From a virus, in IMG/VR virus record IMGVR_UViG_3300045988_114391, positions 1-30,863 of that record: a stretch of 30,863 nt of DNA. The stretch is one strand, 5' to 3'. This document shows, piece by piece, positions 2,485-30,863 of the stretch (the stretch's first letter is position 1; every line of letters begins with the position of its first letter). The notes under the pieces are model-generated. The model did not search any database and was not told the DNA's origin. It saw only the letters and a list, made by a program, of their open reading frames with translations. The translations under genes and the position numbers were made by a program.

Positions 2485-2573
2485 AATTAGCGCTTTTTAG
2501 TATAAGTAAATATAGAAATTAACTTTCCATTCTTGTAGTGATAAATAACTTCTGTTTCCATAAAATATAATTT

Positions 2574-2912
2574 TTAATTAATAAGTTTGTATATAACATC
2601 TATCAGCTTAGTAGATGCATCTTTTAATAATATCATAATATCTTTAATAATTGGAGTCATAAATGCTAATAGTGCAATATACCCAACCATTAAAATTGAA
2701 AATTGACTTGTAATAAGAATATATATTAATCCAATTCACCAAGTCATACATAAACTGCAATCTAAAGGTTTTAGTCTTCAATCTTCTTTATAAGGTATAC
2801 CTTTAAATAGTCTTTTTCAAATACTGTGTTTAAAACTATCCAAAGCCCCAGATAAATCAATTATAAAGACTATTATTACTGCTATTATAAATAATTCTAA
2901 CATAATCTTCAT
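2574..2912 (-). CDS. Small integral membrane protein (three in-frame TGA)
   Basis: Hand translation: MKIMLELFIIAVIIVFIIDLSG...PLDCSLCMTW[W]IGLIYILITSQFSILMVGYIALLAF... Hydrophobic segments. TGA at 2817, 2778 and 2736. TAA stop at 2574. Confidence 0.55.
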
Positions 2913-3382
2913 ACATAATTATAACCTGTTTTATATTTGCCATATAAACAAGCTCGAATTGAATAATCACACTTACCTAAAGCTTCCGCAGCTTCTTTAA
3001 TAGAATTATACTTTTTAACTAGAGTTCCGTTAAGATCATATTGAGCTACAGGTTTTGAAAGGTAAGAAGAAATCTTTTTATTTCTAGTTCCATAATTTGT
3101 ATTATATTTCCTAGTACATCATTCTAGATTTTCGACTCTATTGTCAGTCTTATCTTCATTAATATGATTTACTTCTGGTAAATTATATATATTTGGTATA
3201 AATGTTTCAGCTACTAATCTATGTATAGACTTCATTTTAACTTTTCCATTTTTTCATAGTCCTACTGCTAAGTAGTTATTTCTAATAGTAGGTTTAATAA
3301 ATTTATTTGTCCTTATACTATAAACTTCTCCGATATTATTTACTTTATAAAGACCTTCATAATTAGCTATATCCTTCCACAT
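2897..3382 (-). CDS. HNH homing endonuclease (NUMOD4-like N-terminus, HNH core, C-terminal DNA-binding tail); three in-frame TGA
   Basis: MWKDIANYEGLYKVNNIGEVYS..., HRLVAETFIPN, VNHINEDKTDNRVENLE[TGA]CTRKYNTNYGT. Invisible in the standard-code track. TAG stop at 2897. Confidence 0.85.
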
Positions 3383-3621
3383 ATTTTATTTCTAATATTA
3401 CTTATACACCTTGATATGGTAGTATGACTAATTCCCAATATTTTTCCCACTTCTCTATAACTGTGATATTCAGCATATAATATGATTACTGTCTTATCTG
3501 CCTTATTAAGCTCAAGTCATTTTGGATATATACTTAATAGTCTATCATCCATATTTGTAAACATACTATAGTCTATTTCATACTCAGTAAGTAAATCGTC
3601 AATATTAATCTTCCGTTTCAT
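3367..3621 (-). CDS. Sigma-70 region-4-like HTH protein (one in-frame TGA)
   Basis: LELNKADKTVIILYAEYHSYREVGKILGISHTTISRCISNIRNKI resembles the region 4.2 HTH of ECF sigma factors. TAG stop at 3367. Confidence 0.6.
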
Positions 3622-3913
3622 TTAATCAATCCTCCAATTCGTCATTTTGTTGTTCAAGTGGTTCTTTAACAATCTCATAATATTTCTTATAGGTATAGTA
3701 ATATCTACTTGTTTTACTAAACCAATAATTCTTAAATAATCTTGTAATCCAAAATTTCAATTCATTTTTGCTATCAAGCTGATTTAATTTTGGATTTGAA
3801 TACTCTAGTATTTCTACAAAAATCATTTGAACACAGTCATCATCTGCACCAAATTTTTGCTTAAGTTCCATAATAAATGGATAGTACTTTTCTACAATTT
3901 CGTTATTACTCAT
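3605..3913 (-). CDS. Sigma-70 region-2-like protein (track ORF 3626..3913 extended through TGA to TAA at 3605)
   Basis: EKYYPFIMELKQKFGADDDCVQMIFVEILEY...ELKFWITRLFKNYWFSKTSR resembles the ECF sigma region 2 pattern (..D.vQ..f..l.....W...i..N.....R). Its 3-prime end overlaps the start of the region-4-like gene. Confidence 0.5.
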
Positions 3914-4400
3914 ATGTTCACATATATCCTCCTGCTGTTTTTCGCTGCCCTTTAAGAACCTTTACAATATTTCTAGATTGTATATTTAGTTCTCTCTCAG
4001 CATCTATTGTTGAATCCCATCTTTTAATAACTATTCCATTTAGTAATTGCAGTATTGGTTTCTTATGACTATATCCAGCTCGCAGATTATGAGTTCCATA
4101 ATTATTATTATAATTATAAGTACACCATTCTAAATTACTTACGTTATTATTTGATTTATTTTCATCCTTATGATTTATACAAGGATAGTTATTCGGATTA
4201 GATATAAAAGTTTCAGCTACTAATCTATGTATATAACACTTCTTTTTCAAATTTTTATTATATAATGTTACTGTAAAGTACCCATTAGTTTTTACTTGAG
4301 GTTTTAACCTCTTTGGAACTGATGCTCTTAAACTTCATATTGAGCCATCAGTTCCAATTTGGTAGTTTTCAAAATTAAGTATTCTTTTATAGGCTATCAT
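3906..4400 (-). CDS. HNH homing endonuclease, paralogue of 2897..3382 (two in-frame TGA)
   Basis: MIAYKRILNFENYQIGTDGSI[TGA]SLRA..., HRLVAETFISN, INHKDENKSNNNVSNLEWCTYNYNNNYGT, C-terminus AGGYM[TGA]TYE then TAA. Confidence 0.85.
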
Positions 4401-4824
4401 TTGCTATATAATTACTAAATTCTGTATTTACATCTATCTTAATGGCTTTCTTTAAAGACAACTCTGTTTTTAATGAATAGCCATAAGTTCCTCCAAAATC
4501 TGTTGTAGAACAACCATATTTCATAGAATCCTTTATAAAGGCTTGTTTTATATCTTTAAATATATATACTCCATCATCAAATATTATTACTAATATAGAA
4601 TTATTTCTTGATAGCATATCAAATTTATCCCTATTAATAATAGTGGTTGGATATTTATTAGAATTGAATCTTCTTCTTTTAACTTCAATTATATAATCAA
4701 TTCCATTCCAATTAAATGTTCCATCATACCTGGAATAATCGTCTTTACATCATTCTATATCTATATTAAATTTCTCTTTAAATAGATTCTTTGTAAAGAC
4801 TAAACTTCTTATATCTGTTTTCAT
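4387..4824 (-). CDS. Hypothetical protein with a possible PD-(D/E)xK nuclease motif (one in-frame TGA)
   Basis: MKTDIRSLVFTKNLF...DIE[TGA]CKDDYSRYDGTFNWNGIDYIIEVKRRRF... joins track ORF 4387..4617. The D...EVK arrangement suggests a restriction-endonuclease-like fold. Confidence 0.5.
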
Positions 4825-5140: not shown

Positions 5141-5216
5141 TTTTTTAGGTATTATTTTTATTATTTTCAAAAAAATATTACTATTTGTATTTTTATTATA
5201 TATTAATAAAAACAAT

Positions 5217-5702
5217 ATGATTTACGTAATTAAATTAACTAAAACGAATTTTATTAAAGTTGGTTACACTACTAATATAAGTGGCAGACTAACTGCTTAT
5301 AAAAATACTATTCCAAATGAGATGATAGAATTTTTTATAGCAAAAGAAGGAAATAGAGATGATGAAAATTATTATAGAGATAAATATAGAGCATATAAAA
5401 CTAAGAGTAATTCAGAATGGTTAAAACTTCCAGATGAATTAATTGTAGAGCTATTAGCAGATTTTAAGAGTGCAAATAATATAAAAATAAATAAACAAAG
5501 CAAAAAAGAATGATATAATGAGAATATAGATAAATTAGTAGAATTGTGCTTATCTGGAGTATCATTAAATAGAGCTGCAATTCAATTAAATGCACTAAAT
5601 TGAGACTGAATAAAATATGCTAATCAAAGATACGAAAAAGAGAATGGCAAAAAATTAACAAAACTTTGGGTAAGAAAAATCAAGAAAAGTTTTGCAGAAT
5701 AA
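5217..5702 (+). CDS. T5orf172 (GIY-YIG-related) domain protein with a C-terminal HTH-like extension (three in-frame TGA)
   Basis: MIYVIKLTKTNFIKVGYTTNISGRLTAYKN...SEWLKLPDELI matches the T5orf172 pattern. Reads through TGA at 5511, 5601 and 5607 to TAA at 5700..5702. TGG is also used (KLWV). Confidence 0.75.
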
Positions 5703-5721
5703 AAATTTATTATTATATTTG
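5691..5721 (+). promoter_or_regulatory. Bacteroidota-type promoter P1
   Basis: TTTG (5691..5694), a 19-nt spacer, then TATATTTG (5714..5721). Shares the core ATTATATTTG with P2 and P3. Confidence 0.5.
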
Positions 5722-5769
5722 TAGTGTAAAGAAAAAAATAATTTTTTATTAAAAATAATACCCGAATTA

Positions 5770-5801
5770 TTTGGAAATTTAATTTTTATGTATTATATTT
5801 G
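5770..5801 (+). promoter_or_regulatory. Bacteroidota-type promoter P2
   Basis: TTTG (5770..5773), a 20-nt spacer, then TATATTTG (5794..5801). Confidence 0.5.
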
Positions 5802-5829
5802 CAGTATGAAACTAAAACTAATAATTCTA

Positions 5830-5855
5830 GGCAGGTGAAAGTCCTGCCACTTTTT
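5830..5855 (+). terminator. Intrinsic terminator or attenuator
   Basis: ggcagg-tgaaagt-cctgcc hairpin followed by actttttg. Confidence 0.65.
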
Positions 5856-5864
5856 GAATCTTAC

Positions 5865-5914
5865 TGTCAAGTTTTTTACTCACTTTTAGTAGTAAGAAAA
5901 TAAAAATATTGACA
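5865..5914 (+). repeat. Intergenic 50-bp element, copy S1
   Basis: TGTCAAGTTTTTTACTCAC-ttttagtag-TAAGAAAATAAAAATA-TTGACA. The 18-nt head is identical in S1, S2 and S3, and the ends are inverted (TGTCAA/TTGACA). Confidence 0.8.
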
Positions 5915-5944
5915 AAAACTTTAACTATTTAAATTATTAAAATT

Positions 5945-7666
5945 ATGAAAACATATTTAAACAATTTGATTAATGAGTTGCCAACTAACTGCTTATTTGA
6001 TAAAGGAAAAGTTGGATGTGGAGGAACTTCAATGGCAATTGAATGTAATAAGCCTTATGTTATTTGTGTTCCATTTACTAGCTTAGTTGAGAATAAACTT
6101 CAACAATATCCAAATGAAAGACGTACTGAGAAGATATTTGGAGTTTATGCTGGAGTTACTATTAAAGAGATTAAAGATTACGTAGATAGTGTTAAATGTC
6201 CTAAAATTATTGTTACATATAACTCACTTCCGAAGGTTATTTCTGCAGTTAATACTAAAGAATACAGTTTATTAGTAGATGAATATCATATACTATTTAA
6301 TCAGTATAGCTTTAGAAAGGATGCTATTAAACCTGTTTTAGAGAACTATAAATTATTTAAAGATTTTACATTTATGACTGCAACTCCTCTTGAAGAAGAA
6401 TTCGTATTAGATGAATTAAAAGATTTAGAATTAGTAAAACAAGAATGGGATGATGTTATTGAAACTAAGGTACAAGCCGTTAAATGTAAGAATGTTGAAG
6501 CTTCAACTATTAAATTAATTAATGCTGTTCTTAATAATCAAGTTGAAGGTAATGTTTATATATTTGTAAATTCTGTGGACTTTATAAAGAATCTTATTCA
6601 GAAAGCTAAACTTACAGAAGAGAATACCAGAGTTATATATTCCAAAAACAATAAAACCAAATTATCAATTCATAATTCTACAGTATTAGATGAACCTAAG
6701 AAAATAAATTTATTAACTTCTACAGTATTTGAAGGTTCTGATATTTATGATGAAAATGGAAGAATTGTAGTAGTAAGTGATGCTCAAAAAGCACAAACTC
6801 TTCTTGACATCTCAACTTCAATCCAACAGATTGCTGGCAGAATTAGAAATAGTAAATATTTAAACTGGATAACTCATCTTTACTCAGCAACAAGATATGC
6901 AGATATTAGTTATGAAGACTTTAAAAAGAAGAATATCCAGAATATTGAGGAAACTAAGATTGCTGTAGATGCTTACAATGCAATGCCTGAAGTTGCAAGA
7001 AAGAAACTTAAAGAATTTACATCTGATACTTATATCCAAGTAAATGATGATTTTACATTTACATTTGATCCAAATATGGCTAAGGTAGATATTTTTAACT
7101 TTAAAGTGACAAGAGGTTTATATTCTATTAGAACGAATCTTAATAAAGAATATATAAAGAATGGATTTAAAAAAGTAATAGAATGTGAAGACAACTCTAT
7201 TAAGATTGATTTTGAATCTGATAATAAACCATTTAAAGAACTAATTAAAGAAGTTAGAACAGAATGGGAAAATAAATTTAAACTGAATACTCCACTCTTA
7301 AATGATGCTATTATTAAATATCCTTGGTTACCAGAAGCTATTAGTAAATTAGGATTCGAAAAGATGGCAAGCTTGAAATATTGCATTTCGGATATTAAAG
7401 ATGCTCTATTAAAGAAATCAAATAAAAGTGCAGATAATAAAGCAGCTAAGAAGTTAAATCAATCAATTACTCTTGGAATGTGGTATTCTAACGCTGATAT
7501 TAAAAAGTTTGTTAAAGAAGCTTATGAAATTAGTGATATTACTATTACTCCAAAAGCAACAGAAATTGATAAATATTATGAAGTTAAAAAATGCCAGAAA
7601 AGAGTAAATGGTAAACAAACTGAAGGTTATGTAATTATTAATAAAAAATTTGTATTTAATAAATAA
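5945..7666 (+). CDS. SF2 (DEAD/DEAH-like) helicase; probable replication/early protein
   Basis: Walker-A-like KGKVGCGGTS, LLVDEYH (motif II), FMTATP (motif III), QQIAGRIRN (motif VI). 573 codons with no TGA. TAA stop. Confidence 0.8.
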   Translation: MKTYLNNLINELPTNCLFDKGKVGCGGTSMAIECNKPYVICVPFTSLVENKLQQYPNERRTEKIFGVYAGVTIKEIKDYVDSVKCPKIIVTYNSLPKVISAVNTKEYSLLVDEYHILFNQYSFRKDAIKPVLENYKLFKDFTFMTATPLEEEFVLDELKDLELVKQEWDDVIETKVQAVKCKNVEASTIKLINAVLNNQVEGNVYIFVNSVDFIKNLIQKAKLTEENTRVIYSKNNKTKLSIHNSTVLDEPKKINLLTSTVFEGSDIYDENGRIVVVSDAQKAQTLLDISTSIQQIAGRIRNSKYLNWITHLYSATRYADISYEDFKKKNIQNIEETKIAVDAYNAMPEVARKKLKEFTSDTYIQVNDDFTFTFDPNMAKVDIFNFKVTRGLYSIRTNLNKEYIKNGFKKVIECEDNSIKIDFESDNKPFKELIKEVRTEWENKFKLNTPLLNDAIIKYPWLPEAISKLGFEKMASLKYCISDIKDALLKKSNKSADNKAAKKLNQSITLGMWYSNADIKKFVKEAYEISDITITPKATEIDKYYEVKKCQKRVNGKQTEGYVIINKKFVFNK

Positions 7667-7680
7667 AAATATTATATTTG
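7649..7680 (+). promoter_or_regulatory. Bacteroidota-type promoter P3
   Basis: TTTG (7649..7652), a 20-nt spacer, then TATATTTG (7673..7680). The ATG at 7685 follows 4 nt later. Confidence 0.5.
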
Positions 7681-7684
7681 TGAT

Positions 7685-7846
7685 ATGGAAAGTGATATTA
7701 AAGAAACAATTAAACAAACAGAAGAGTATATTAAAGAATTGGATAAATGAATGCTCGAATGTAAAGAGGCTACTAAAAGATTTGGTGATATTATAGATAA
7801 AGTATTAAAAGATAAAGATTATATGTTTATTTCTAAATTTGATTAA
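7685..7846 (+). CDS. Small hypothetical protein (one in-frame TGA at 7748)
   Basis: MESDIKETIKQTEEYIKELDK[TGA]MLECKEATKRFGDIIDKVLKDKDYMFISKFD, TAA stop. Confidence 0.45.
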
Positions 7847-8174: not shown

Positions 8175-8744
8175 TTAAACATATCTTCACTTGAATCCTT
8201 TAGCTGTATTTGCTAATCCACCACATACTCTACTAATAGCTCCTCTATCAGTTCCTACAGATTTGGCTGCTTCTGTGCAACTTTCATACTCTTGAATAAA
8301 ATTACCATCTAAATCATACTGAGCTACTTTACGACATCTTTGTTTGTTATGAGCATCTACTTTAACTCTTCAAGATTCTGGGCAATTATGTTTCTTTCCC
8401 TTATTAGAATTAGACAGTTTCTTCTTTCATTCAGAATTAAATTTGACTCCGTAATTGCCTCCTTCTCCTCCAGGTTTCAAATTTAAACACATAGGATCAG
8501 TGTCCCATTTATCTCCAATTAGTTTGTATTCTAATTTAGATAATTCATCTGCATTAGTGCAAGTTGCCAAAATAATCTTTTGGTATGCATTAGGGAATCT
8601 TTTGTAATAATTAGTAATAATCCTTCCTGATCCTTTATATGGATCTTTATTTATGTCTTTACCTCTATAAATCCTTTTCCCAATATAATACTTGCCTCTT
8701 AATGTACCTGCAGTTAAAATTATTTTATAACAATAGTAAAACAT
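8175..8744 (-). CDS. GIY-YIG homing endonuclease with C-terminal DNA-binding domain (three in-frame TGA)
   Basis: N-terminus YCYKIILTAGTLRGKYYIGKR...KPGGEGG. Reads through TGA at 8427, 8370 and 8187 into ...KKHNCPES[W]RVKVDAHNKQRCRKVAQYDLDGNFIQEYESCTEAAKSVGTDRGAISRVCGGLANTAKGFK[W]RYV, then TAA. Confidence 0.85.
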
Positions 8745-10441: not shown

Positions 10442-11125
10442 TTACTTACTCTTTTTATTGTTATCACTTGAAGGGAAATCATAAGCTCTTTGCAGAGGAC
10501 CTTCACAAGAATTATATCTCCAACCTTTACCTCTAGCTCCACCTAACCAAATAGTACAAGATGAACTTGAATACATATTTGGATACATATCTTTAAGAGG
10601 TTTATAAGAATACAATTCAGGAAAATCATTATAATATGTAATTACCCAATTTTGTAATCTCGTTTTAAAGAAATCTGCTTTATCTCTATAATATTTCTTA
10701 ATAAGATTAACTTGGCTAATATCAGAAGTTAAATCTTTCTCATCATCAGTCCTCATAACCCCAAAATTACTCAGCTTAAATGAGATGGGTATAGTAATCT
10801 CACTTAATACTTGATAAAGTAAATAAGGCTGAATATAGTAATCTAGCAATTCTTTATATCTATGATTTTCTGGGTCATCTATTGAAGTAGGATCATAAAT
10901 AGGAGGTTCTATTGGATGAACTGGTTTATTTGGATCTTTTCAATCAATTACTAATTTCTGAATCTTTTCTAAGAGCTTAGTTCCAATTAATGACTGAAGC
11001 TCAATATCTTGTGCAAGTTTAATTGCTGACTGAAGATATTTACCAGAAACATTATTGTCTAGATTAGATTCTGATTTTATATAATCTTCAGATATTAATA
11101 GTACATTTCTATAATTATTTTCCAT
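10442..11125 (-). CDS. Hypothetical protein, possibly a head-tail connector (one in-frame TGA at 10940)
   Basis: Track ORFs 10940..11125 and 10442..10849 are in one frame. The gap translates without TAA/TAG (LVID[W]KDPNKPVHPIEPPIYDP...). Located just downstream of the portal gene. Confidence 0.55.
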
Positions 11126-12213
11126 TATTCAACTTGTTTAGTATCAGCTTCATTAAGGCTAAATGGTGAAATTGTGATTGAATTCTGCATTCCAAAGATC
11201 TTATCAAATGAATCACAAATCTCTTTCTGAATAGGTCTAATCATAGTTCTATTATAAAGCTTGAATGAAGATTCAAATTCTTGCTCATTAAAACCAGTTG
11301 AATCTGAGTTAATTCCAAATAAGTTAGGATTAGCTCTGAAGGCACAGAATATTTGATCTCTGGTTCTCTCAGATAATGATTGATATTTCTCATCAAAATC
11401 ATCAGAATCTAATCTTTCAATAGTAGTCTTATTTGCCTCATCTGCATTATATGAAATCAATATTCTGCCAGCATTCTGATAACCAGAGAACTTCTCATTA
11501 ATATTCCTCTCAATCTCCTCTCTAATTTCATCTGTAGGTTCCCCATTATTAAAGTTAATAATAAGATTACCCATAAATCCATTATTGATGTTATTTAAAT
11601 GGAATTCATTAATATTTTTCTCAGTTTCACAAGATAAAATAGCAGCTCCATAAACAGGAATAGGATATACTCCTCTTGTTATATAACCTTTATTATAAAA
11701 TATACTAGCTGGATTTTCATCCCCAGCTCCAAATTTTGGATATTTTATAGCTTTTACAGACCAAGCTGTCCAATCAGTTGCATAATATAATACATCATTC
11801 TTTTCACTCGACCTTACATTCATAAAATCAATATGATAGATCTCTGCAACTCTTCCGAGCATATCTCTAATTACTTGGATAGCATAACCTCCAAATATCA
11901 TCTTATCAATAGTGATTTTTCTCATTATATCAACTATTGTTTCACCTTTCTTGTTTACAACTACTTCAAATCCTGGAGCATTACATTTAACATCGTTACC
12001 AACAATAAAGTCAGCAGAACCATTAATAATGGATTGGAGAGTGGCAACATTTAAATATAAATCCCATAGATATAACGGATATTTGTTATCTTCTCCTCAC
12101 ATTATCATATCAGAACCTCTTTTCCTTGTTTCCGTTGGAAGAACGATGTTAGATTGAATGAAAGGATCTATGGCTGAGAGTTTTAGATTTGATTTTATTT
12201 TATTTTCTTTCAT
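11125..12213 (-). CDS. Portal protein (one in-frame TGA at 12097)
   Basis: ATG at 12213: MKENKIKSNLKLSAIDPF...SDMIM[W]GEDNKYPLYLWDLYLNVATLQSIINGSADFIVG..., then track ORF 11125..11925 (ANPNLFGI, GFNEQEFESSFKLYNRTMIRPIQ). Resembles portal families by eye. Confidence 0.7.
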
Positions 12214-12586
12214 AGCTTATATATTGATTTTGTCTATCATATTGGTATCTTTGATTTTCATAATCCCCAATTCTAATTAAACCAGTACTAAGAATTGGAA
12301 TAGGTTTTCCAGCTATCAGAATTTTAGTATTTGTAGTTAATATATTATCATAGGTGACTAATACATAGCTATTGTACTGATCTTGATATATGTTATTTGG
12401 GTCTATGACGATTTCCCATTTATTTGGGTTATAAAATAATACATACTGATACTCTCCATCTGGTGTATTATCATCTAACGTTATATCAAATTTATAATAT
12501 ATATTTTCAGAATAATTCTGATTATTTAAATTATAAATATAAATTTGTTTTGTTACAGTATGCTGAAGAACAAGACTATAATTCAT
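12200..12586 (-). CDS. Hypothetical protein
   Basis: Uninterrupted 128-codon ORF with a TAA stop. Y/N/Q-rich. Confidence 0.5.
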   Translation of the reverse strand: MNYSLVLQHTVTKQIYIYNLNNQNYSENIYYKFDITLDDNTPDGEYQYVLFYNPNKWEIVIDPNNIYQDQYNSYVLVTYDNILTTNTKILIAGKPIPILSTGLIRIGDYENQRYQYDRQNQYISYERK

Positions 12587-13241
12587 ATTTTCAAATATAT
12601 TTTTTATATGTGGGAATTATGCCTCTTAAAGCATTATATACACCACTTCTTGTAAATTCGTCTTCTAGCTCTCTAATTCGACTATATTTTTTAATTAGTT
12701 TTCCATCTAAAGAGTATCTGAGAATATATTTATATTTGGGATTTGGCCTAGTCTTTCAAGCTTCTTTCATAGCTTGTTTACATTCCTCACTTCTTGATTT
12801 TCCATATAAAGGATGAAATTCTCCAGATCTACAATAATTACTAGTATGTTTACCGTAATTTGGATTCTTTTCCCCTCTTTTTGCTTCAGACAATCTTTTT
12901 CTCGTTTCCTCAGTTATTATATGTCCAAATCCACCATCTCCTCCATCTGTCATATTATATCCATTTATTTTAGAATTAAATAAATTAATATATTTCTTTT
13001 CAGCTTCATCTAATTTTCTATTTAATAAACTTTCTGAGGTACAACAAAATACCTGTATAGCTTCGATAATAAAATTTTTATCTCCATATTTCCTAATAGC
13101 TCGACTTAAATGATAATCCAAACCAGATTTTGCTTTCAGTTTATGCTCAATGAACCTACGCTTAATATCTCTGGTGGTTTTTCCAATATAAATCTTATTG
13201 TTTATTAAATTAGTTATTTTATAAATTGTTCCACTTTGCAT
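12576..13241 (-). CDS. GIY-YIG homing endonuclease (two in-frame TGA)
   Basis: GTIYKITNLINNKIYIGKTTRDIKRRFIEHK...NGYNMTDGGDGG. Reads through TGA 12756 into KTRPNPKYKYILRYSLDGKLIKKYSRIRELEDEF... and ends at TAG 12576, overlapping the next start. Confidence 0.85.
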
Positions 13242-13308
13242 AATTTTACATTAGTTTTACATATCTTTTTCTTAAAATATAAACTAATTTACTAATGTAT
13301 TAAAATAA

Positions 13309-13334
13309 TTAAAGGAGACCTAAGCCTCCTTTAA
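13309..13334 (-). terminator. Intrinsic terminator
   Basis: ttaaaggag-acctaagc-ctcctttaa hairpin, followed on the minus strand by ttattttaa. Confidence 0.7.
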
Positions 13335-13384
13335 TGTCAAGTTTTTTACTCACTCAAAGTACTAAGAAAAAATAAAAACTGACA
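13335..13384 (+). repeat. Intergenic 50-bp element, copy S2
   Basis: TGTCAAGTTTTTTACTCAC-tcaaagtac-TAAGAAAAAATAAAAA-CTGACA. It ends 4 nt from the stop codon of the gene at 13389. Confidence 0.8.
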
Positions 13385-13388
13385 AAAT

Positions 13389-14408
13389 TTATGCTGATGC
13401 TAAAGTTCAGTTTTTAGATGTAGCTAATGATTTCTGTTCTTCAGTAAGTGCATTATAAACATCTGCTGCAAATATAATAGTTTGAGGCACTTCTCCAGTT
13501 AAATCAGCAGCTTTATTTAGAATATTATCAATAGCCAAAGAATTAAGACTTGGCAGTTTACTTAAATCTAAATACGTTTTTAACCCTACTATTCCTCCCA
13601 TATCAGTTATATAAGTATTATTGGAAGATCAGCTATAAAATGGCCAATTAGAAAAGTTTTGTCTTGCTGCACTTATACTTGTAACATCTCATTCAGGAAG
13701 TTCAGTTATATTATCAGGTAATTGTTCGTAGAATCCTCCTATTTCCATATTAATTACATTACCCGTAATATTAAATTTCATAGTTGGCAATATTGTCACT
13801 CTATCTTTTTGAACTCCAGTAAACATACCAGACATATTAATTGAACAACTTGATCTAGAACTATTAAACTCAATTTCATTTACATTAATAACAGAGTATG
13901 CAAAAGTACTGGTAAAACTAGAATTACCATTCTCTTCAATAATAAATTTTTGAATTATTGGAGAACTGTCTTGTATTTGAGTATTATAAAAAGCAAAGTC
14001 AGCATTACTACAATATATTTCTGCTGGAAATAAAATATCAGAACATTTAATTTGATAAAAAGTATACTCTAAATTATAATTCAAAATATTAAATAGACTA
14101 TTTAAATTTATTGTTATACCATTTAAATTTGCGTCTTGAAAAAATCATTTTGTAGAACTAGTATCATCAAATGAATATGTAACATTATCATATTGTTCTT
14201 GTGACATATTAGAAAATGCAAGTGTTAATCCACAATCATTTAAATTAATCTTTCCTCCACCACCTCCAGAAATCTGTCCTATCTTATCTGCATAGCTTCT
14301 AAAGGTATCGGAATCTGATACAGCAACACCTTTAGCTACAATAGCATCTTTAATGGCACTCTTAGTACCTTCAAGATACGTTAATTTATCAGAAATTGTA
14401 TTTGCCAT
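13389..14408 (-). CDS. Tail fibre / receptor-binding-type protein (four in-frame TGA)
   Basis: Track ORFs 14145..14408, 13689..14084 and 13407..13601 are in one frame, and the gaps carry only TGA. N-terminus MANTISDKLTYLEGTKSAIKDAIVAKGV...GGGGG is typical of phage fibre proteins. C-terminus LTEEQKSLATSKN[TGA]TLASA parallels 15305..16420. Confidence 0.65.
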
Positions 14409-18545: not shown

Positions 18546-18598
18546 ATTATTTTTCTATAAAATATAAATTATTCATTATGTGGTATATAAACAAAATA

Positions 18599-19201: not shown

Positions 19202-20119
19202 TTAAGCCTTGGCACCTAATACTACTTCGTCAGGGAAAGCAACTTGTACACCAGCGTTAAATTCAATAGCTAATCTGAACTCGCGGAAATCCTGTGAATA
19301 CCACAATTCGAATTTCTCTTCATCGTTCATCATATCTACACCATAGAAGAAGTTCTTGTCTAACTGACCAGCAACAATCTTATCAGTTCCATTAAGACCA
19401 TTAACAGCAATAACCTTAACCTGCGAACCAGGAAGATAAATCTCACCATCAAGGCTTTCTCCGCTATAGTGGAAATAGTTCTTCTCAACAAGTTCGTTTA
19501 CGAACTTACGGAACATATCAGCACCAACAAGAATAGAAGCACCATCAAGAACCTTCTCAGGAATTGCATTATAAACTGCCATAATGTCAGTATAGGCAGA
19601 TGTTCCAGCAATTGTTACATCAACAACACCATCAGCAGCACCATCAGCAGCACCAAGGATCTTTAACAGACCATCAAAATACTTCAGGTTATTAGTTTCT
19701 GAAGCCGTATCACCCTGCCAGATAGCTATCTCAATAGCCTCTTTTACGTTCTCTACAACAGCATTTACGAAATCCTCTTCAAAAGGAAGAGTCTTCTGAC
19801 CAGCGGCTACCTTAACTGCATACTGAGTCCAGTATTTCAGCATAGCCTTATCGCAATATGCCATATTAATCTTAATATTACCAGTCTTAAGAATTCTCTG
19901 AGAAAGAGTCTGAGTTCCAGACTCATCCCAACCACAAGTAAGACCATCACCGAACTGAACATCGGTAGATAACAGGTTAAGAGCAGCATCAGTTTTAATA
20001 TCTGTCTGAAGATTAAATAAACTTGCACTCTTAGCTTTTAAAACCGCTTCCTTAATAAGAGGGAGACGTCTTTGCTCCACATAAGCAGGAAGAGTTGTCA
20101 TTACAGGACTATTTGCCAT
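19202..20119 (-). CDS. Major capsid protein (HK97-fold type)
   Basis: 305 aa directly after the protease and scaffold genes. Sequence pattern (IWQGDT...YFDGLLK..., C-terminal FELWYSQDFREFRLAIEFNAGVQVAFPD) resembles HK97-like capsid families. Confidence 0.75.
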   Translation of the reverse strand: MANSPVMTTLPAYVEQRRLPLIKEAVLKAKSASLFNLQTDIKTDAALNLLSTDVQFGDGLTCGWDESGTQTLSQRILKTGNIKINMAYCDKAMLKYWTQYAVKVAAGQKTLPFEEDFVNAVVENVKEAIEIAIWQGDTASETNNLKYFDGLLKILGAADGAADGVVDVTIAGTSAYTDIMAVYNAIPEKVLDGASILVGADMFRKFVNELVEKNYFHYSGESLDGEIYLPGSQVKVIAVNGLNGTDKIVAGQLDKNFFYGVDMMNDEEKFELWYSQDFREFRLAIEFNAGVQVAFPDEVVLGAKA

Positions 20120-20752: not shown

Positions 20753-21346
20753 TTAATGTTTAACTCTTTTTATTTTTCTCAACATTTTTTGAATCTCTTT
20801 AAGTTCCTCATATTCATCAGATTGTCTTTCTAAAGTAAACAATCCCTCAATAGAGAACCCTTTAAACTTGCCAGCTTTAATTGCATCCCATATAACAGGA
20901 TTATTTACTTTATAAGTAGCAAATAATGAACCATCTGGACAATCAGCAAATTCAACTGGATTAATTCCTCTATCTATATCTTTAATATATAGTTCTTGAA
21001 GAATTATTCCAGGAATTACTGAATCTTCCAAATGTTCAATATTTACATCAGTAGTTCTCTTATCATACATCATTTTTTCAGCCATTAAACGGAGAGTTTC
21101 TTTATCATATTGAATATAATATTCTCCGTTTTTACTATCCCGTCTAAATATAGGTATATCACATACCATTAAACAAGAAGTAACTATATGTTTTTCTTCA
21201 TCCATCGAGAACTTCTGAGATTCCCCAAAAGCAAGCCAATTAACTTGGGTTGCAGGTTTACTGGTCAATGCTACGAACTCTATTCCATCACAATCATCAG
21301 CAATAATTGCTTGATATAATGGAAGATCATTATACATTTTTTCCAT
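20753..21346 (-). CDS. XkdF-like putative prohead protease
   Basis: VNIEHLEDSVIPGIILQELYI...GSLFATYKVNNPVIWDAIKAGKFKGFSIEG matches the XkdF-type domain pattern as I recall it. Lies upstream of the scaffold and capsid genes. Confidence 0.6.
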   Translation of the reverse strand: MEKMYNDLPLYQAIIADDCDGIEFVALTSKPATQVNWLAFGESQKFSMDEEKHIVTSCLMVCDIPIFRRDSKNGEYYIQYDKETLRLMAEKMMYDKRTTDVNIEHLEDSVIPGIILQELYIKDIDRGINPVEFADCPDGSLFATYKVNNPVIWDAIKAGKFKGFSIEGLFTLERQSDEYEELKEIQKMLRKIKRVKH

Positions 21347-21425
21347 TTTTTATTAATATATAAGCTATTTTAAAAATGTAATATTGTTACAATCTTTTAT
21401 TTTTATATATTTATATACTATCAAA

Positions 21426-21474
21426 TGTCAAGTTTTTTACTCAAATTTGTATCTAAGATAAATAAATTTTGACA
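21426..21474 (+). repeat. Intergenic element, copy S3
   Basis: TGTCAAGTTTTTTACTCAA-atttgtatc-TAAGATAAATAAATT-TTGACA. Confidence 0.8.
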
Positions 21475-21477
21475 TAG

Positions 21478-21521
21478 CACTACTATATAAGCACTGATAA
21501 TCAGCAACTTACATAGTAGTG
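21478..21521. other. Stem-loop between element copies S3 and S3b
   Basis: cactactat (21478..21486) pairs with atagtagtg (21513..21521). The loop holds a small ctga-taa-tcag hairpin. Confidence 0.6.
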
Positions 21522-21540
21522 TGTCATAAATTTTACTCAC
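21522..21540 (+). repeat. Half copy (head only) of the intergenic element, S3b
   Basis: TGTCATAAATTTTACTCAC versus the head TGTCAAGTTTTTTACTCAC. It abuts the stop codon at 21542. Confidence 0.6.
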
Positions 21541-21541
21541 T

Positions 21542-24301
21542 TTAGAAACTTGCATTTGATTCTGTAACTGCAACTTTAGTTTGAGCTGAAGTAATGTCAG
21601 ATTCAACAACATAACACTTAACAGGTTCATTTAAAAGGTCAGTTTCTTTATCTCCAAGTAAGTTTCGAGTATATTCTACAGGAGCAGTATTTAAAGCAGC
21701 AGGTGCTGCAATAGATGCAGAAGCAGAAGATGCAGATGCTCCACTAGTTTCGTCTACTTCCCAGATCTTTTTAACATTAGCTATACCAGCTGCAATTGCT
21801 GCAGCAGCGGCGGCAGCACCTAAAGCTGGACCTACAACTGGAATACCAGCCATTGCAGAATAAGCACTGTTAGCTGCACTATATGTATCAATTAAAGCTT
21901 GAGCTGTTGCGAATCCTTTACCTACTTTACTTTCCTCTCCTCATATAGTTGCCATACTTCCTGCAACCTTTGATGCTAGATCAAGGCGAGCTTTTATAGA
22001 TTCTTGATATTGCTTATTAACATTTTCTCTAACTTTGTTTTTCTTATTTTCTCTGTCTATTTCATTTTCAGTTAATTGCTCATCAATAGAATCTAATTCT
22101 AGTTTAATAAGTTTTCTCTGATCAGCTGTTAAAGTCTCATTTTCTAATTGTTTTAATAGAAAAGACTTCTGCTCCTCCAATCTTGTTTTTATTTGATTAT
22201 GATATTTATCTATAGAACCTTCTTCAGTATCTGTTCCTAATAAACGATCTTTATATCCCTCTATGTCTTTTTTGCTTGAATAAGAGAACTCACCACTTAA
22301 TCCAAATATTTTGGCAAATCCTTGTGTATATTGAGTTTTAGGAATTTCTAAAGATGTATCTTTTATATCATACCTTGCCTCGCGCATTCTTTTTAACTCA
22401 GTCTGCAGATCATCTCAAGCTTTATCCGCAGCACTTTTTCTTGCATTTTCTTCATCTTCTCTAGCTTTATCTCTAATTTTCTTCAGCTCTTCTTGATGCC
22501 AAGCCTCAACTTCTTCAATACTTCTATTATTTTTAATAGCTAGTGCTAATAGTCTAATATATTCATCTTCAAGTTCATCTACTGGGTCTTTATCCTCTAA
22601 TCTCTTTTGAAGCCATTCATCAAATTCATTTATTACCTTCTTAGCTTCAGTAGTGTTCTTTGTAATAGTTGGAATATTAAAGAACCCACCATACTTTTTA
22701 TTAGTATCTGCTACATCCTCAAATAGCTTTTTAATCCTTTTCTCAATGTCTTTATTTAAATCATCCAACTGTTTATAAGTATTCTCTTTATTTTGCTTTG
22801 TATACTCATAAATTGTATTTGAATAATCTTTTCAGAACATTGCTGTAGCTTTAAAAGCCTGCCAAGCAGATGCCTCTCCAAAGCTTGTATCAGAAATTTG
22901 ATTCTCCAGTTCAGTACGTTTATTTAAATACTCCTCATAAAGCTTAATTGCAGCCTGTTCAATAGCCTGAGCTTTTGCTCTTGCAGTTAATGCTTCTACA
23001 TAATTACCAGTATTATTTACAAACGCATCTTCTGCAGTCTTTACATTAGTAATATTTAAACCAGTCTCTTTAATCTTATCGGAATATTGCTCTATAAACT
23101 TACGCTTAGCATCTGCAGAATCTCCAACCCTTTCGTAAGCTATTTGTAACTCTCTAAAGATAGCTATAGATTTAGAAGCAATCTGATTAGTAGTATCTGT
23201 AATAGACTTTCTAAATTCAGCAGCCTCCTTTTCAGCTGATTTTATTGAGGATATATACTCTATTATCTTATTAATAGCTACTCCAATAGCTGTAGCTAAT
23301 GCAATTCATACAGTTACATTACCAATAGTTTTAAGTGCAGTTTTAACTTTACCTACTCCAGAAGCAGCTTGTTCTGAAGCTTCAGCCATTGCTTTCTGAG
23401 CCTCTGCCCCTTTTCGCAAAGTTGGAATGCCTTTTTCTACATTTTCCTTTAATTCAGCAAGATCTACACCTAAACGTTTAGCAGCTTTCTGCATTCTCTC
23501 TGCTGGAGTTCCAGTCTCTTTTGCTGCTTCCTTTAAAAATTCAGCAACTGTAGTAAATGTAGGTTTTACTTCTTCAAAGGACTTTTTTGCAGTTTCTCCT
23601 AATTTACCTATAATCGGAATCGTATTAGATACACTCTTATTAGTAGCAGATATTTCAGCAGGAGTGCCCATTACTCCTTGAATCATACCTCCTTTAAAAT
23701 TAATATTGGTGCCTTCTAAATCCTTGACTACTTTAGAGATATTACCTAATTCAGTTCCAACATTACCAACAGATGTGCCAATGCCATTAAGCTTAGATGC
23801 ATCAATCTGATTAAGATTTTTGGCAGCATTATTCAACCCTGTATTAAATGGAGAGATAAAATCAGTTAATTTCTTAAACCAATTACCTAAAGTAGGCAAT
23901 TCTTCTAATAAATCTTTTATACCTCCCACACCTTGAACTAAAGCAATAGTAGATTGTAACTTAACCATTACTTTATTTAAATCTTCTGATTCTTTCCCAA
24001 ATAAAGTAATAGCAGCAGTTGCAGCTCCATATCCACTGGCCAAACCAGTGGATATTTTAGCTACACTTTCAAACCTTTGAGCAGTAGTTCTTGAAGATCT
24101 TGCTATCTGCTCATTAATTTTATTGAATTCTGATTGTCTCTTACCAAGTAATGAAAGAGTTTCATTATATTCCTTAGTACCAATCTCTAAATCATTCAGC
24201 GAATTAGTTAATGCATCAATATCTTTCTTTAAAGAGTTTATTGACTTATTACTTGACTTAGTATCAATACTAATAACCTTTTTAATTTCTGTTTGTGCCA
24301 T
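21542..24301 (-). CDS. Tape-measure-like protein, 919 aa (four in-frame TGA)
   Basis: Track ORFs 23306..24301, 22415..22768, 21941..22387 and 21542..21853 share one frame. I translated all gaps and found only TGA (23306, 22832, 22415, 21941). Long coiled coils, and a Gly/Ala hydrophobic segment GIPVVGPALGAAAAAAAIAAGI near the C-terminus. Confidence 0.7.
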
Positions 24302-30415: not shown

Positions 30416-30458
30416 TTTTGTTAAAATATATTATTTTATATATTAGTAGCTAATGAAA

Positions 30459-30479
30459 ATAGGGAGGTTTACTCCCTAT
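30459..30479. terminator. Intrinsic terminator hairpin (T-rich on both sides)
   Basis: atagggag-gttta-ctccctat followed by tttta (+ strand) or tttcatt (- strand). Confidence 0.7.
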
Positions 30480-30485
30480 TTTATA

Positions 30486-30535
30486 TGTAACTTTTTTATA
30501 TTATCTTAGTACCAAATATGAGTAAAAAGGTTACA
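30486..30535 (-). repeat. Intergenic 50-bp element, diverged inverted copy S4
   Basis: The minus strand reads TGTAACCTTTTTACTCA-tatttggtac-TAAGATAATATAAAAAA-GTTACA. It has the same block order and length as S1-S3 and abuts the stop codon at 30537. Confidence 0.6.
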
Positions 30536-30536
30536 G

Positions 30537-30863
30537 TTAATGTTTTCTTTTTCATTCTTCAATCTGTCTATTTTCTTCATTAGCTTTATCTATAACATAG
30601 CATATAATGTTAAGAAACTCTTTAATCTGCATATCATATATCTGATGTCAATTAAATCTGGTAACTTCACTTACCTTATCTATTCAGATAATTCAGCTTC
30701 ATTTTTGAGTAAAAGGATTAATCGTCTCGTCTGTATTAAGCTCTTCAGAAGTTTCCTCCTTTCCAGTTTGTCCTTGGTTTTCCTTAGTCTCTTCTTCATC
30801 TCCCTTTCCGAAGAGTGTAGGGTACTCAGCGTTGATACTTGCAATAAGTTTACAAAAAAAAAC
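30537..30863 (-). CDS. 3-prime part of the junction-spanning gene, read in the -1 frame after the T9 run (five in-frame TGA)
   Basis: ...ASINAEYPTLFGKGDEEETKENQGQTGKEETSEELNTDETINPFTQK[W]S[W]II[W]IDKVSEVTRFN[W]HQIYDMQIKEFLNIICYVIDKANEENRQIEE[W]KRKH, TAA at 30537. About 105 codons free of TAA/TAG in very AT-rich DNA. Confidence 0.5.
30765..30863. repeat. Second copy of the 99-nt terminal duplication
   Basis: Identical to 1..99. Confidence 0.9.

Follow-up and report, generated by a model that had tools for sequence, protein, structure and literature searches.

IMG/VR virus record IMGVR_UViG_3300045988_114391, analyzed here over its whole length of 30,863 nucleotides (the window), carries a family of intergenic quasi-palindromes of about 50 bp. 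We found this element to recur at the same gene junctions in related phages, to have ends that change together and stay complementary, to fold as RNA better on one strand than on the other, and to lie within a few nucleotides of stop codons at several sites. We tentatively read it as a REP/MITE-like palindromic intergenic repeat that would be active as an mRNA hairpin in processing or stability, a reading whose probability we put somewhat below an even chance. We infer RNA to be its active form, and a role in RNA processing or 3′-end protection is suggested by analogy, on the one hand with the REP, ERIC, and Correia repeats and on the other with phage T7 and SP82 sites for RNase III.

The family is defined by an 18-nt head, TGTCAAGTTTTTTACTCA, which occurs exactly on the plus strand at 5865, 13335, and 21426. 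With up to three mismatches allowed, the window holds 3 matches against 0.14 expected, and none of 100 shuffles reached 3. The copies and the hairpins beside them are as follows.

S1, 5865..5914, plus strand: 50 bp, type A ends (TGTCAAG...ATTGACA), between the T5orf172-domain gene and the SF2-helicase-like gene
S2, 13335..13384, plus strand: 50 bp, type A ends (TGTCAAG...ACTGACA)
S3, 21426..21474, plus strand: 49 bp, type A ends (TGTCAAG...TTTGACA), between the tape-measure and prohead protease genes
S3b, 21522..21540, plus strand: TGTCATAAATTTTACTCA (21522-21539), a head-like half copy
21478..21521: inverted repeat between S3 and S3b, CACTACTAT...ATAGTAGTG, the apex of a predicted extended hairpin
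S4, 30486..30535, minus strand: 50 bp, type B ends (TGTAACC...AGTTACA), inverted relative to S1 to S3
5830..5848, plus strand: putative terminator (GC-rich hairpin plus T-run), 16 nt upstream of S1
13308..13335, minus strand: putative terminator (GC-rich hairpin plus T-run), immediately after S2 in the mRNA sense
30460..30478: GC-rich hairpin TAGGGAG-gttta-CTCCCTA, adjoining S4

An earlier reading made by a model from the letters alone (the sequence-only reading) had described this family with inverted ends, and its coordinates checked out, as did the three GC-rich hairpins. S1, S2, and S3 end in TTGACA, CTGACA, and TTGACA, respectively. S4, described there as diverged and inverted, is a true inverted copy: its reverse complement, TGTAACCTTTTTACTCATATTTGGTACTAAGATAATATAAAAAAGTTACA, paired with S1, S2, and S3 at 78 to 86% identity over 28 to 36 nt in a repeat search. 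S3b, described as a head-only copy, matches the head at 14 of 18 positions. As proposed, the copies occupy module boundaries, i.e., the few intergenic gaps between gene blocks. Three of them adjoin stop codons, read in genetic code 4: on the minus-strand mRNA, S2 begins 4 nt past the stop of the fibre-like gene (13389-13391), with the terminator hairpin directly after it; the tape-measure stop (21542-21544) is 2 nt from S3b; and a stop at 30537-30539 is 1 nt from S4. One larger palindrome encompasses both S3 and S3b, together with the hairpin that separates them and the 3′-terminal part of the tape-measure gene.

The exact 18-mer was found in 55 viral-contig stretches, 52 of which align to this genome at 74 to 96% identity, and complete related contigs (~30 kb) carry 3 or 4 copies at syntenic junctions. 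As a guard against ascertainment bias, loci were also fetched through the capsid and terminase proteins and then searched with a profile of the element. Conservation at syntenic positions, on which the sequence-only reading had staked its case, was borne out: across about 60 related contigs, copies are found at the S1 to S4 junctions and at a fifth site, S5. These copies comprise 39 distinct full-length variants, the length of which is held, as proposed, within narrow limits (45 to 51 bp, mostly 48 to 50). A genome carries 2 to 6 copies; sites may be occupied or empty, degenerate copies also occur, and the S2 element is missing in 5 of 26 loci, which have another hairpin in its place. A given subtype may be found at several sites, a given site may hold more than one subtype, and a CTTTT/AATTT alternative recurs at S1, S3, and S4. 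The claim that orientation relative to the genes is not constant also stood, both orientations having been found. Many genomes have at S4 a type A or type C copy oriented as S1 to S3 (canonical S4; 25 instances), whereas the window and others have the inverted type B copy (18 instances). S5 is inverted too. Where present, it lies between the helicase-like gene and the next gene, which leaves the helicase-like gene bracketed by inverted copies. Contig 111924 (L152:2600-4600) is such a case; its S1 and S5 copies have in common a tail variant, TATAGATAAAATAAAAATAGACA, seen together at these two sites only. Long-range pairing of the two copies in the mRNA is conceivable, as is an exchange of sequence between them through gene conversion.

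The element is confined to one clade. No copy was found in relatives with capsid identity of 71% or less (L115, L116, and more distant loci) or in L169 (50% terminase identity). We also looked for an analogous palindrome in distant relatives and rejected this idea, as L116, L169, L133, and L126 have intergenic motifs of their own and no such palindrome. The GC-rich L133 (~39% capsid identity), for example, has a four-copy intergenic motif, TTTACAATTTTCGCCGTTTTGATATTTCAAGAAAAG, at L133:1810-11618; this lineage seems to replace its intergenic signals wholesale.

All types have TGT...ACA ends and the core TTTTT(T)ACTCA (invariant 10 nt, TTTTTACTCA). Just inside these ends, the next three bases on either side vary in concert (CAA/TTG, AAC/GTT, or CTA/TAG), giving the allelic end types A (TGTCAAG/CTTGACA), B (TGTAAC/GTTACA), and C (TGTCTA/TAGACA). 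A terminal helix of 6 to 7 bp is kept in all three, the seventh pair being present in some variants. RNAalifold found no structure when 37 variants were aligned with MAFFT, the gaps having fallen in the arms. The helix was therefore tested on end-anchored sequences, and each variant was folded separately. In the end-anchored set, 89.6% of the cells were paired, compared with ~37% when the partner was slid. Four terminal pairs change on both sides (covariation score, 0.263 versus 0.080), none of 500 shuffles scored as high, and a separate permutation test of the end pairing gave 5 of 10,000. The pairing of the ends was thus supported by the covariation analysis that the sequence-only reading had called for, against its own leaning away from a conserved RNA fold. 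Different end types coexist within single genomes, which argues against one protein with a specificity co-evolved with its sites. Of the architecture described earlier, the head and the ends stood. The variable middle and the A-rich tract are not free: they are complementary to the head when G·U pairs are allowed, the A's of the U-rich arm standing opposite the U's of GAGUAAAAA. The large S3 hairpin was compared among ten variants, which were too similar to be informative about covariation.

Folding depends on the strand. Folded as RNA, the strand complementary to the head gives an almost uninterrupted stem of 16 to 21 bp. Over the 39 variants, its mean free energy was −10.7 kcal/mol, versus −6.1 kcal/mol for the head strand, and it had the lower minimum free energy in 36 of them; relative to dinucleotide shuffles, the z scores were −2.88 and −1.06, respectively. 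All four window copies show the same asymmetry. With DNA parameters there was no strand difference, and the predicted DNA hairpins were weak (~−5 kcal/mol). The better-folding strand is the mRNA at S2, S3, canonical S4, and S5 (134 instances against 46). Where the head strand is sense, at S1 and type B S4, the asymmetry is smaller (2.7 versus 5.6 kcal/mol; Mann-Whitney P = 0.0017). On the sense strand, the hairpin starts 1 to 4 nt past the stop codon at S2, S4, and S5, while at S3 it is S3b that adjoins the stop. At S2 and S4, in the sense orientation, a GC-rich terminator-like hairpin follows the element directly, and S2 folded together with its terminator gave a z score of −4.1. The sense RNA of the S3 region (21400-21560), beginning in the final tape-measure codons and continuing just past the element, is predicted to fold as a single extended hairpin (−50 kcal/mol; z, −7.3), in which S3b pairs with the 5′ arm of S3 in a doublet-like manner, at this site and in its type A allele only.

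In the reading we prefer, the long late mRNA from the minus strand would carry the complement of the head (5′-UGUCAR, a U-rich arm, a loop, and GAGUAAAAAAC-UUGACA-3′), predicted to fold into an AU/GU-rich hairpin of ~16 to 21 bp, 1 to 4 nt past the stop codon that ends the final gene of a block. This hairpin would precede the GC-rich terminator, the start signal of the next block, or both. It may mark intercistronic boundaries, either as an RNase III-type double-stranded target or as a barrier to exonucleases, and would uncouple the stability and expression of neighboring gene blocks. Recombination between copies, or template switching mediated by the hairpins, may keep the copies alike and at times flip them, with no transposase involved.

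Several findings weigh against an mRNA hairpin. The invariant core and the identity of the 18-mer among paralogous copies exceed the needs of a hairpin alone. In genomes with a canonical S4, the four copies share one DNA strand whichever way the genes run, an independence of gene direction that the sequence-only reading had counted toward recognition as DNA, and the poorly folding strand is sense in 46 of 180 instances (S1 in nearly all genomes, and type B S4, including that of the window). Hybrid ends with an internal mismatch (TGTCAA./ATAGACA) occur in 6 of the 39 variants; the covariation amounts to three or four columns and few independent events, and close kinship inflates the shuffle tests. 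The S2 element is dispensable, as seen in the loci that are missing it. Finally, Pfam scans of 30 of the ~36 phage proteins, with no test aimed at this enzyme, gave no match to RNase III. Given the inverted site classes, the invariant core, and the co-orientation, a double-stranded DNA site, a selfish quasi-palindrome, and a strand-polar signal stay as rivals.

A start motif, TATATWTTANNAAAA, had 9 matches in the window against 2.95 expected, and 6 directly adjoin the start codons of block-initial genes.

5197-5211, plus strand: TATATWTTANNAAAA motif
13267-13281, minus strand: TATATWTTANNAAAA motif
18552-18566, minus strand: TATATWTTANNAAAA motif
21348-21362, minus strand: TATATWTTANNAAAA motif
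30416-30430, minus strand: TATATWTTANNAAAA motif
2555-2569, minus strand: TATATWTTANNAAAA motif

This motif is probably the promoter or initiation signal of each block and is a better promoter candidate than the element. In the element-free relative L116, a terminator hairpin, TATATTTTATTAAAAAA, and an ATG are found at almost every intergenic gap; the L116 motif is near-identical to TATATWTTANNAAAA and precedes most of its genes. Judging from this one element-free relative, the layout common to the lineage appears to be a terminator plus a start motif, with the 50-bp palindrome as an addition in one clade.

The sequence-only reading had favored recognition of the element as DNA over an RNA fold, and this is no longer the favored reading. 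A double-stranded protein site (an operator, a roadblock, or an architectural site), bound by a phage or host protein through the TTTTTACTCA core and the TGT...ACA ends irrespective of orientation, is in our estimate unlikely. It would suit the identity of the 18-mer among paralogous copies with differing middles, the tolerance of both orientations, and the candidate DNA binders encoded by the phage (g6, which resembles a helix-turn-helix protein or sigma region 4, the NUMOD-domain endonucleases, and the T5orf172 protein), as well as a conserved 15-bp palindrome with TGTAA/TTACA half-sites upstream of the protease gene. However, the ends differ (types A, B, and C) within one genome yet stay complementary, the asymmetry of folding is of the RNA type, and the distance to the start-codon motif varies from 10 to 70 nt, sometimes with a hairpin in between. 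Nor was any protein found to be specific to the element-bearing clade except the helicase-like g12; g6 and g7 occur without the element. We consider it similarly unlikely that the element is a selfish or neutral quasi-palindrome without function, spread by gene conversion or illegitimate recombination, with template switching keeping its arms and flipping its copies. The copy number of 2 to 6, the mixture of occupied, empty, and degenerate sites within one clade, the occurrence of S4 in both orientations, and the shuffling of subtypes among sites, including the CTTTT/AATTT alternative, would all fit such spread. Against it, the Pfam-scanned proteins matched no transposase, integrase, or RAYT (IS200/IS605-type Y1), nor a repressor. 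There was no target-site duplication, the flanks (cttac/aaaac, tttaa/aaatt, tcaaa/tagca, and attaac/tataaa) having no common repeat. No clean empty site with otherwise matching flanks was found among the S2 and S5 alleles: the S2 alleles measure 108 and ~160 nt, a gap of about the length of the element, but the hairpin differs and the flanks have diverged, and the same is true of S5. Moreover, the core is invariant across types, the strand bias of folding tracks the transcribed strand, and the placement right after stop codons is consistent. A strand-polar signal that acts when the DNA is single-stranded or nicked, for instance a priming site, a T5- or phiKMV-type nick, or a determinant of packaging or replication polarity, seems to us quite improbable. 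It would account for the co-orientation of canonical copies, including S1 in the only block transcribed the other way. The copies are also fairly evenly spaced around the 30,764-bp circle (7.5, 8.1, 9.1, and ~6.1 kb), and nicking-type HNH-NUMOD endonucleases are encoded. This signal is hard to square with a common inverted S4 allele and an inverted S5, with the weakness of the predicted DNA hairpins, and with the dispensability of S2, and no replication initiator or primase was recognized among the scanned proteins.

A promoter is probably not what the element is, although the sequence-only reading had listed a promoter or binding site for a sigma-like gene pair, g7 and g6, among its candidate roles. 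In the ECF sigma superfamily model, g7 matches region 2 and g6 region 4, both weakly (E values of 8e-4 and 1e-5, below the cut-off), and the pair could be a split or frameshifted sigma factor. The element would then have a −35 sequence TGTCAA/TGTAAC, a 16- to 17-nt spacer, and a central −10-like GTA, and would fire from head to tail. In all variants, RGTW does lie 16 to 17 nt past the first hexamer (TGTnnn-N16-17-RGTW), a layout resembling the Bacillus SigW/SigX promoters (TGAAAC/TGTAAC-N16-17-CGTA/CGAC). We regard this as very improbable. At S2, S3, canonical S4, and S5, such promoters would drive antisense transcription of the flanking genes; the putative −35 sequence varies among types in one genome, and the complementary tail would go unexplained. 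In addition, L169 carries homologues of g7 and g6 (48% and 45% identity) and no element, and gene starts bear the different motif TATATWTTANNAAAA. Outward sigma-70 −35 boxes, for which the TTGACA at both ends was considered, were rejected as well: a −10-like hexamer at 16 to 18 bp is present only at S1 and S3, the −10 position is taken up by the GC hairpin at S2 and canonical S4, and types B and C lose TTGACA on both arms together.

Four further candidates were tried and rejected. The element is not part of a homing-endonuclease cassette: the optional GIY-YIG gene g22 adjoins S2, but most loci with the element have no such gene, so the two are independent. It is not a recombination hot spot at module borders, since identity change-points were spread over many gene borders and were low at S1 and S4; mosaicism does occur across S3. 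A repeat of the host genome was discounted after the search of 185,579 species genomes (one per species) gave 25 single, scattered matches to the 18-mer and none in multiple copies. A known RNA family was discounted as well, since Rfam gave no match at any copy with E values up to 1. The sequence-only reading could not place the element, and a limited search of the literature on phage intergenic palindromic repeats turned up no description of it. We also noted 30-bp palindromes, TGTCAAGTTTTT-N6-AAAAACTTGACA, that use the same 12-nt arm and always a 6-nt spacer, in three Bacteroidota-group genomes.

L061:7155-7184: 30-bp palindrome
L067:2299-2328: 30-bp palindrome
L075:199-228: 30-bp palindrome

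These adjoin integrase/Fic, AbiEi-like, and HigA-like genes, and similar ones are found in four or five unrelated viral contigs (L171 to L175). They are probably ordinary hairpins with a common arm; no link to the phage was found.

Among known systems, REP, REPIN, and BIME sequences are short imperfect intergenic palindromes, often just past stop codons, which occur in both orientations, have a conserved arm, and affect stability at mRNA 3′ ends. The phage element is like them an intergenic quasi-palindrome, of 45 to 51 bp, that can fold as a hairpin and has one arm conserved, and S3 with S3b recalls the REP doublets that form longer hairpins, though at one site and in the type A allele only. 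It differs in its AU-rich composition, REP being GC-rich, and in copy number, with 2 to 6 in a 31-kb phage against tens to hundreds on a chromosome; neither a RAYT among the scanned proteins nor a multicopy host among the species genomes was found. The Correia/nemis repeats of Neisseria and the ERIC repeats of enterobacteria are MITE-like, co-transcribed hairpins with reported orientation-dependent effects of RNase III or RNase E. Like MITEs, the phage element has terminal inverted repeats with subfamilies (6 to 7 bp, three types) and is intergenic in either orientation, but it is half to a third as long as Correia or ERIC, has no target-site duplication or demonstrable insertion event, and resides in a phage. 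One could picture a virus-resident REP/REPIN-like family that colonizes, flips, and homogenizes without a transposase and at the same time serves as an RNA processing or stability code splitting the 27-kb late operon into separately tuned blocks, and this fuller version we hold to be improbable. Within it, long-range pairing of the inverted copies around the helicase-like gene could give a structure resembling an rRNA processing stalk.

The RNase III sites in the early and late mRNA of T7 and in the early mRNA of the Bacillus phage SP82 are intercistronic hairpins of about two helical turns, alike within a genome, at which cleavage has been shown. The phage element may resemble them at S2, S3, canonical S4, and S5, where intercistronic hairpins of ~16 to 21 bp are predicted on the transcribed strand between gene blocks; at S1 and at the S4 of the window, the weaker-folding strand is sense. 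The T7 and SP82 sites are all in one orientation on the transcribed strand, whereas the element has two inverted site classes. Mycobacteriophage stoperators are asymmetric repressor sites of 13 to 17 bp in 20 to 30 copies, oriented with transcription, lacking inverted ends and forming no hairpin. They and the start-associated sequences are, like the element, short conserved phage intergenic repeats near stops or starts; the element differs from stoperators in being 50 bp long, palindromic, and present in 2 to 6 copies in both orientations. The L5 stoperator contains TGTCAAG, which is also a type A end, presumably by coincidence.

The PeSL cassettes of T4-type phages combine sigma-70 early promoters with terminators in one orientation (PMC2839356, PMC4122927). 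The element shares with them the character of a repeated composite intergenic motif of phages, in which a stem-loop terminator lies by an AT-rich tract and TTGACA (PMC2839356, PMC4122927), and the optional GIY-YIG gene at S2 may be a parallel to the variation in gene content among close relatives at PeSL sites. Unlike a PeSL, it has a properly spaced −10-like hexamer only at S1 and S3 and is itself a palindrome with co-varying ends, and mosaic breakpoints are not concentrated at S1 or S4.

From its sequence, the element would be a new case among small palindromic intergenic repeats, unusual for its setting in a 31-kb, code-4, highly abundant gut phage. Such repeats are well studied in bacterial chromosomes and rarely described in phage genomes, where every intergenic base is under pressure and no transposase is at hand. 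Because the lineage is so abundant, existing data would allow covariation, gain, loss, and flipping to be tested on the scale of populations. Should the copies be processing or stability signals, they would offer a handle on the control of gene expression in an uncultured phage that reads TGA as tryptophan; should they instead be protein or nick sites, a probe is at hand in the invariant TTTTTACTCA core.

As for the genome itself, bases 1-99 are an exact direct repeat of 30765-30863, a signature of circular or terminally redundant assembly. We therefore treat the window as a circularly assembled genome with 30,764 bp of unique sequence. Long genes arise from its open reading frames (ORFs) only when TGA is read as Trp (genetic code 4). 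Conserved Trp positions of the HNH and GIY-YIG endonucleases hold TGA where neighboring paralogues use TGG (TGA-codon examples, 2897-3382, 8175-8744, and 12576-13241); early and late genes alike are affected, with 49 TGA and 79 TGG codons in total and only TAA or TAG as stops. A scan of the window gave no tRNA gene and thus no suppressor tRNA, which points to a host that itself reads TGA as Trp. No Shine-Dalgarno sequence precedes 30 of 35 genes. Nearly all genes lie in a minus-strand run from ~5063 across the join to 8175, the plus strand being used only at 5217-7846. No cultured relative was found in INPHARED by megablast or by tblastn with the capsid protein. In a collection of 5.8 billion proteins, 3,963 of the 8,000 candidates examined were capsid homologues at an E value of 0.001 or less; close homologues number in the thousands and lie on ~30-kb contigs, one of them from a human-gut metagenome. 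The lineage is an abundant, uncultured one of the human gut. The genes referred to above are the following.

557-1840: terminase, recognized in protein scans
3367-3621, minus strand: g6 of the sigma-like pair
3605-3913, minus strand: g7 of the sigma-like pair, its ORF overlapping that of g6 by 17 nt
5217-5702, plus strand: T5orf172-domain gene
5945-7666, plus strand: SF2-helicase-like gene g12
11125-12213: portal, recognized in protein scans
13389-14408, minus strand: fibre-like gene
19202-20119: capsid, after the source's own name for a 90%-identical homologue; Pfam gave no match
20753-21346: XkdF-type prohead protease, from protein scans
21542-24301: tape-measure gene, assigned by size and position only

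An M15 peptidase was also recognized in the protein scans, and g12 had no match in PDB or NCBIfam. Upstream of the protease gene, the 15-bp palindrome TGTAATATTGTTACA (21377-21391) lies ~15 nt upstream of the start motif and is kept in every S3 allele. Its half-sites look like the ends of type B elements; a general TGTAA-N5-TTACA operator was rejected, as the window holds one exact site only.

Five homing-endonuclease-like genes are packed into the 31 kb (2897-3382, 3906-4400, 5217-5702, 8175-8744, and 12576-13241): two HNH-NUMOD, one GIY-YIG-NUMOD3, one NUMOD1 (GIY-YIG-like by eye only), and one T5orf172. Only a few relatives carry the one at 12576-13241. A 145-aa protein (4387-4824, minus strand) had no match in Pfam, PHROG, or NCBIfam; a D...E-V-K pattern seen by eye suggests a PD-(D/E)xK nuclease, and the protein is kept in L169. 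After the terminase gene, a 213-aa ORF runs from 557 across the join and ends at ~30680. Over its 3′ end, a second minus-strand frame (30537-30863) is open for 138 codons, stopping at 30537, 1 nt from S4; it could be a frameshift extension of this ORF or a 31-aa ORF.

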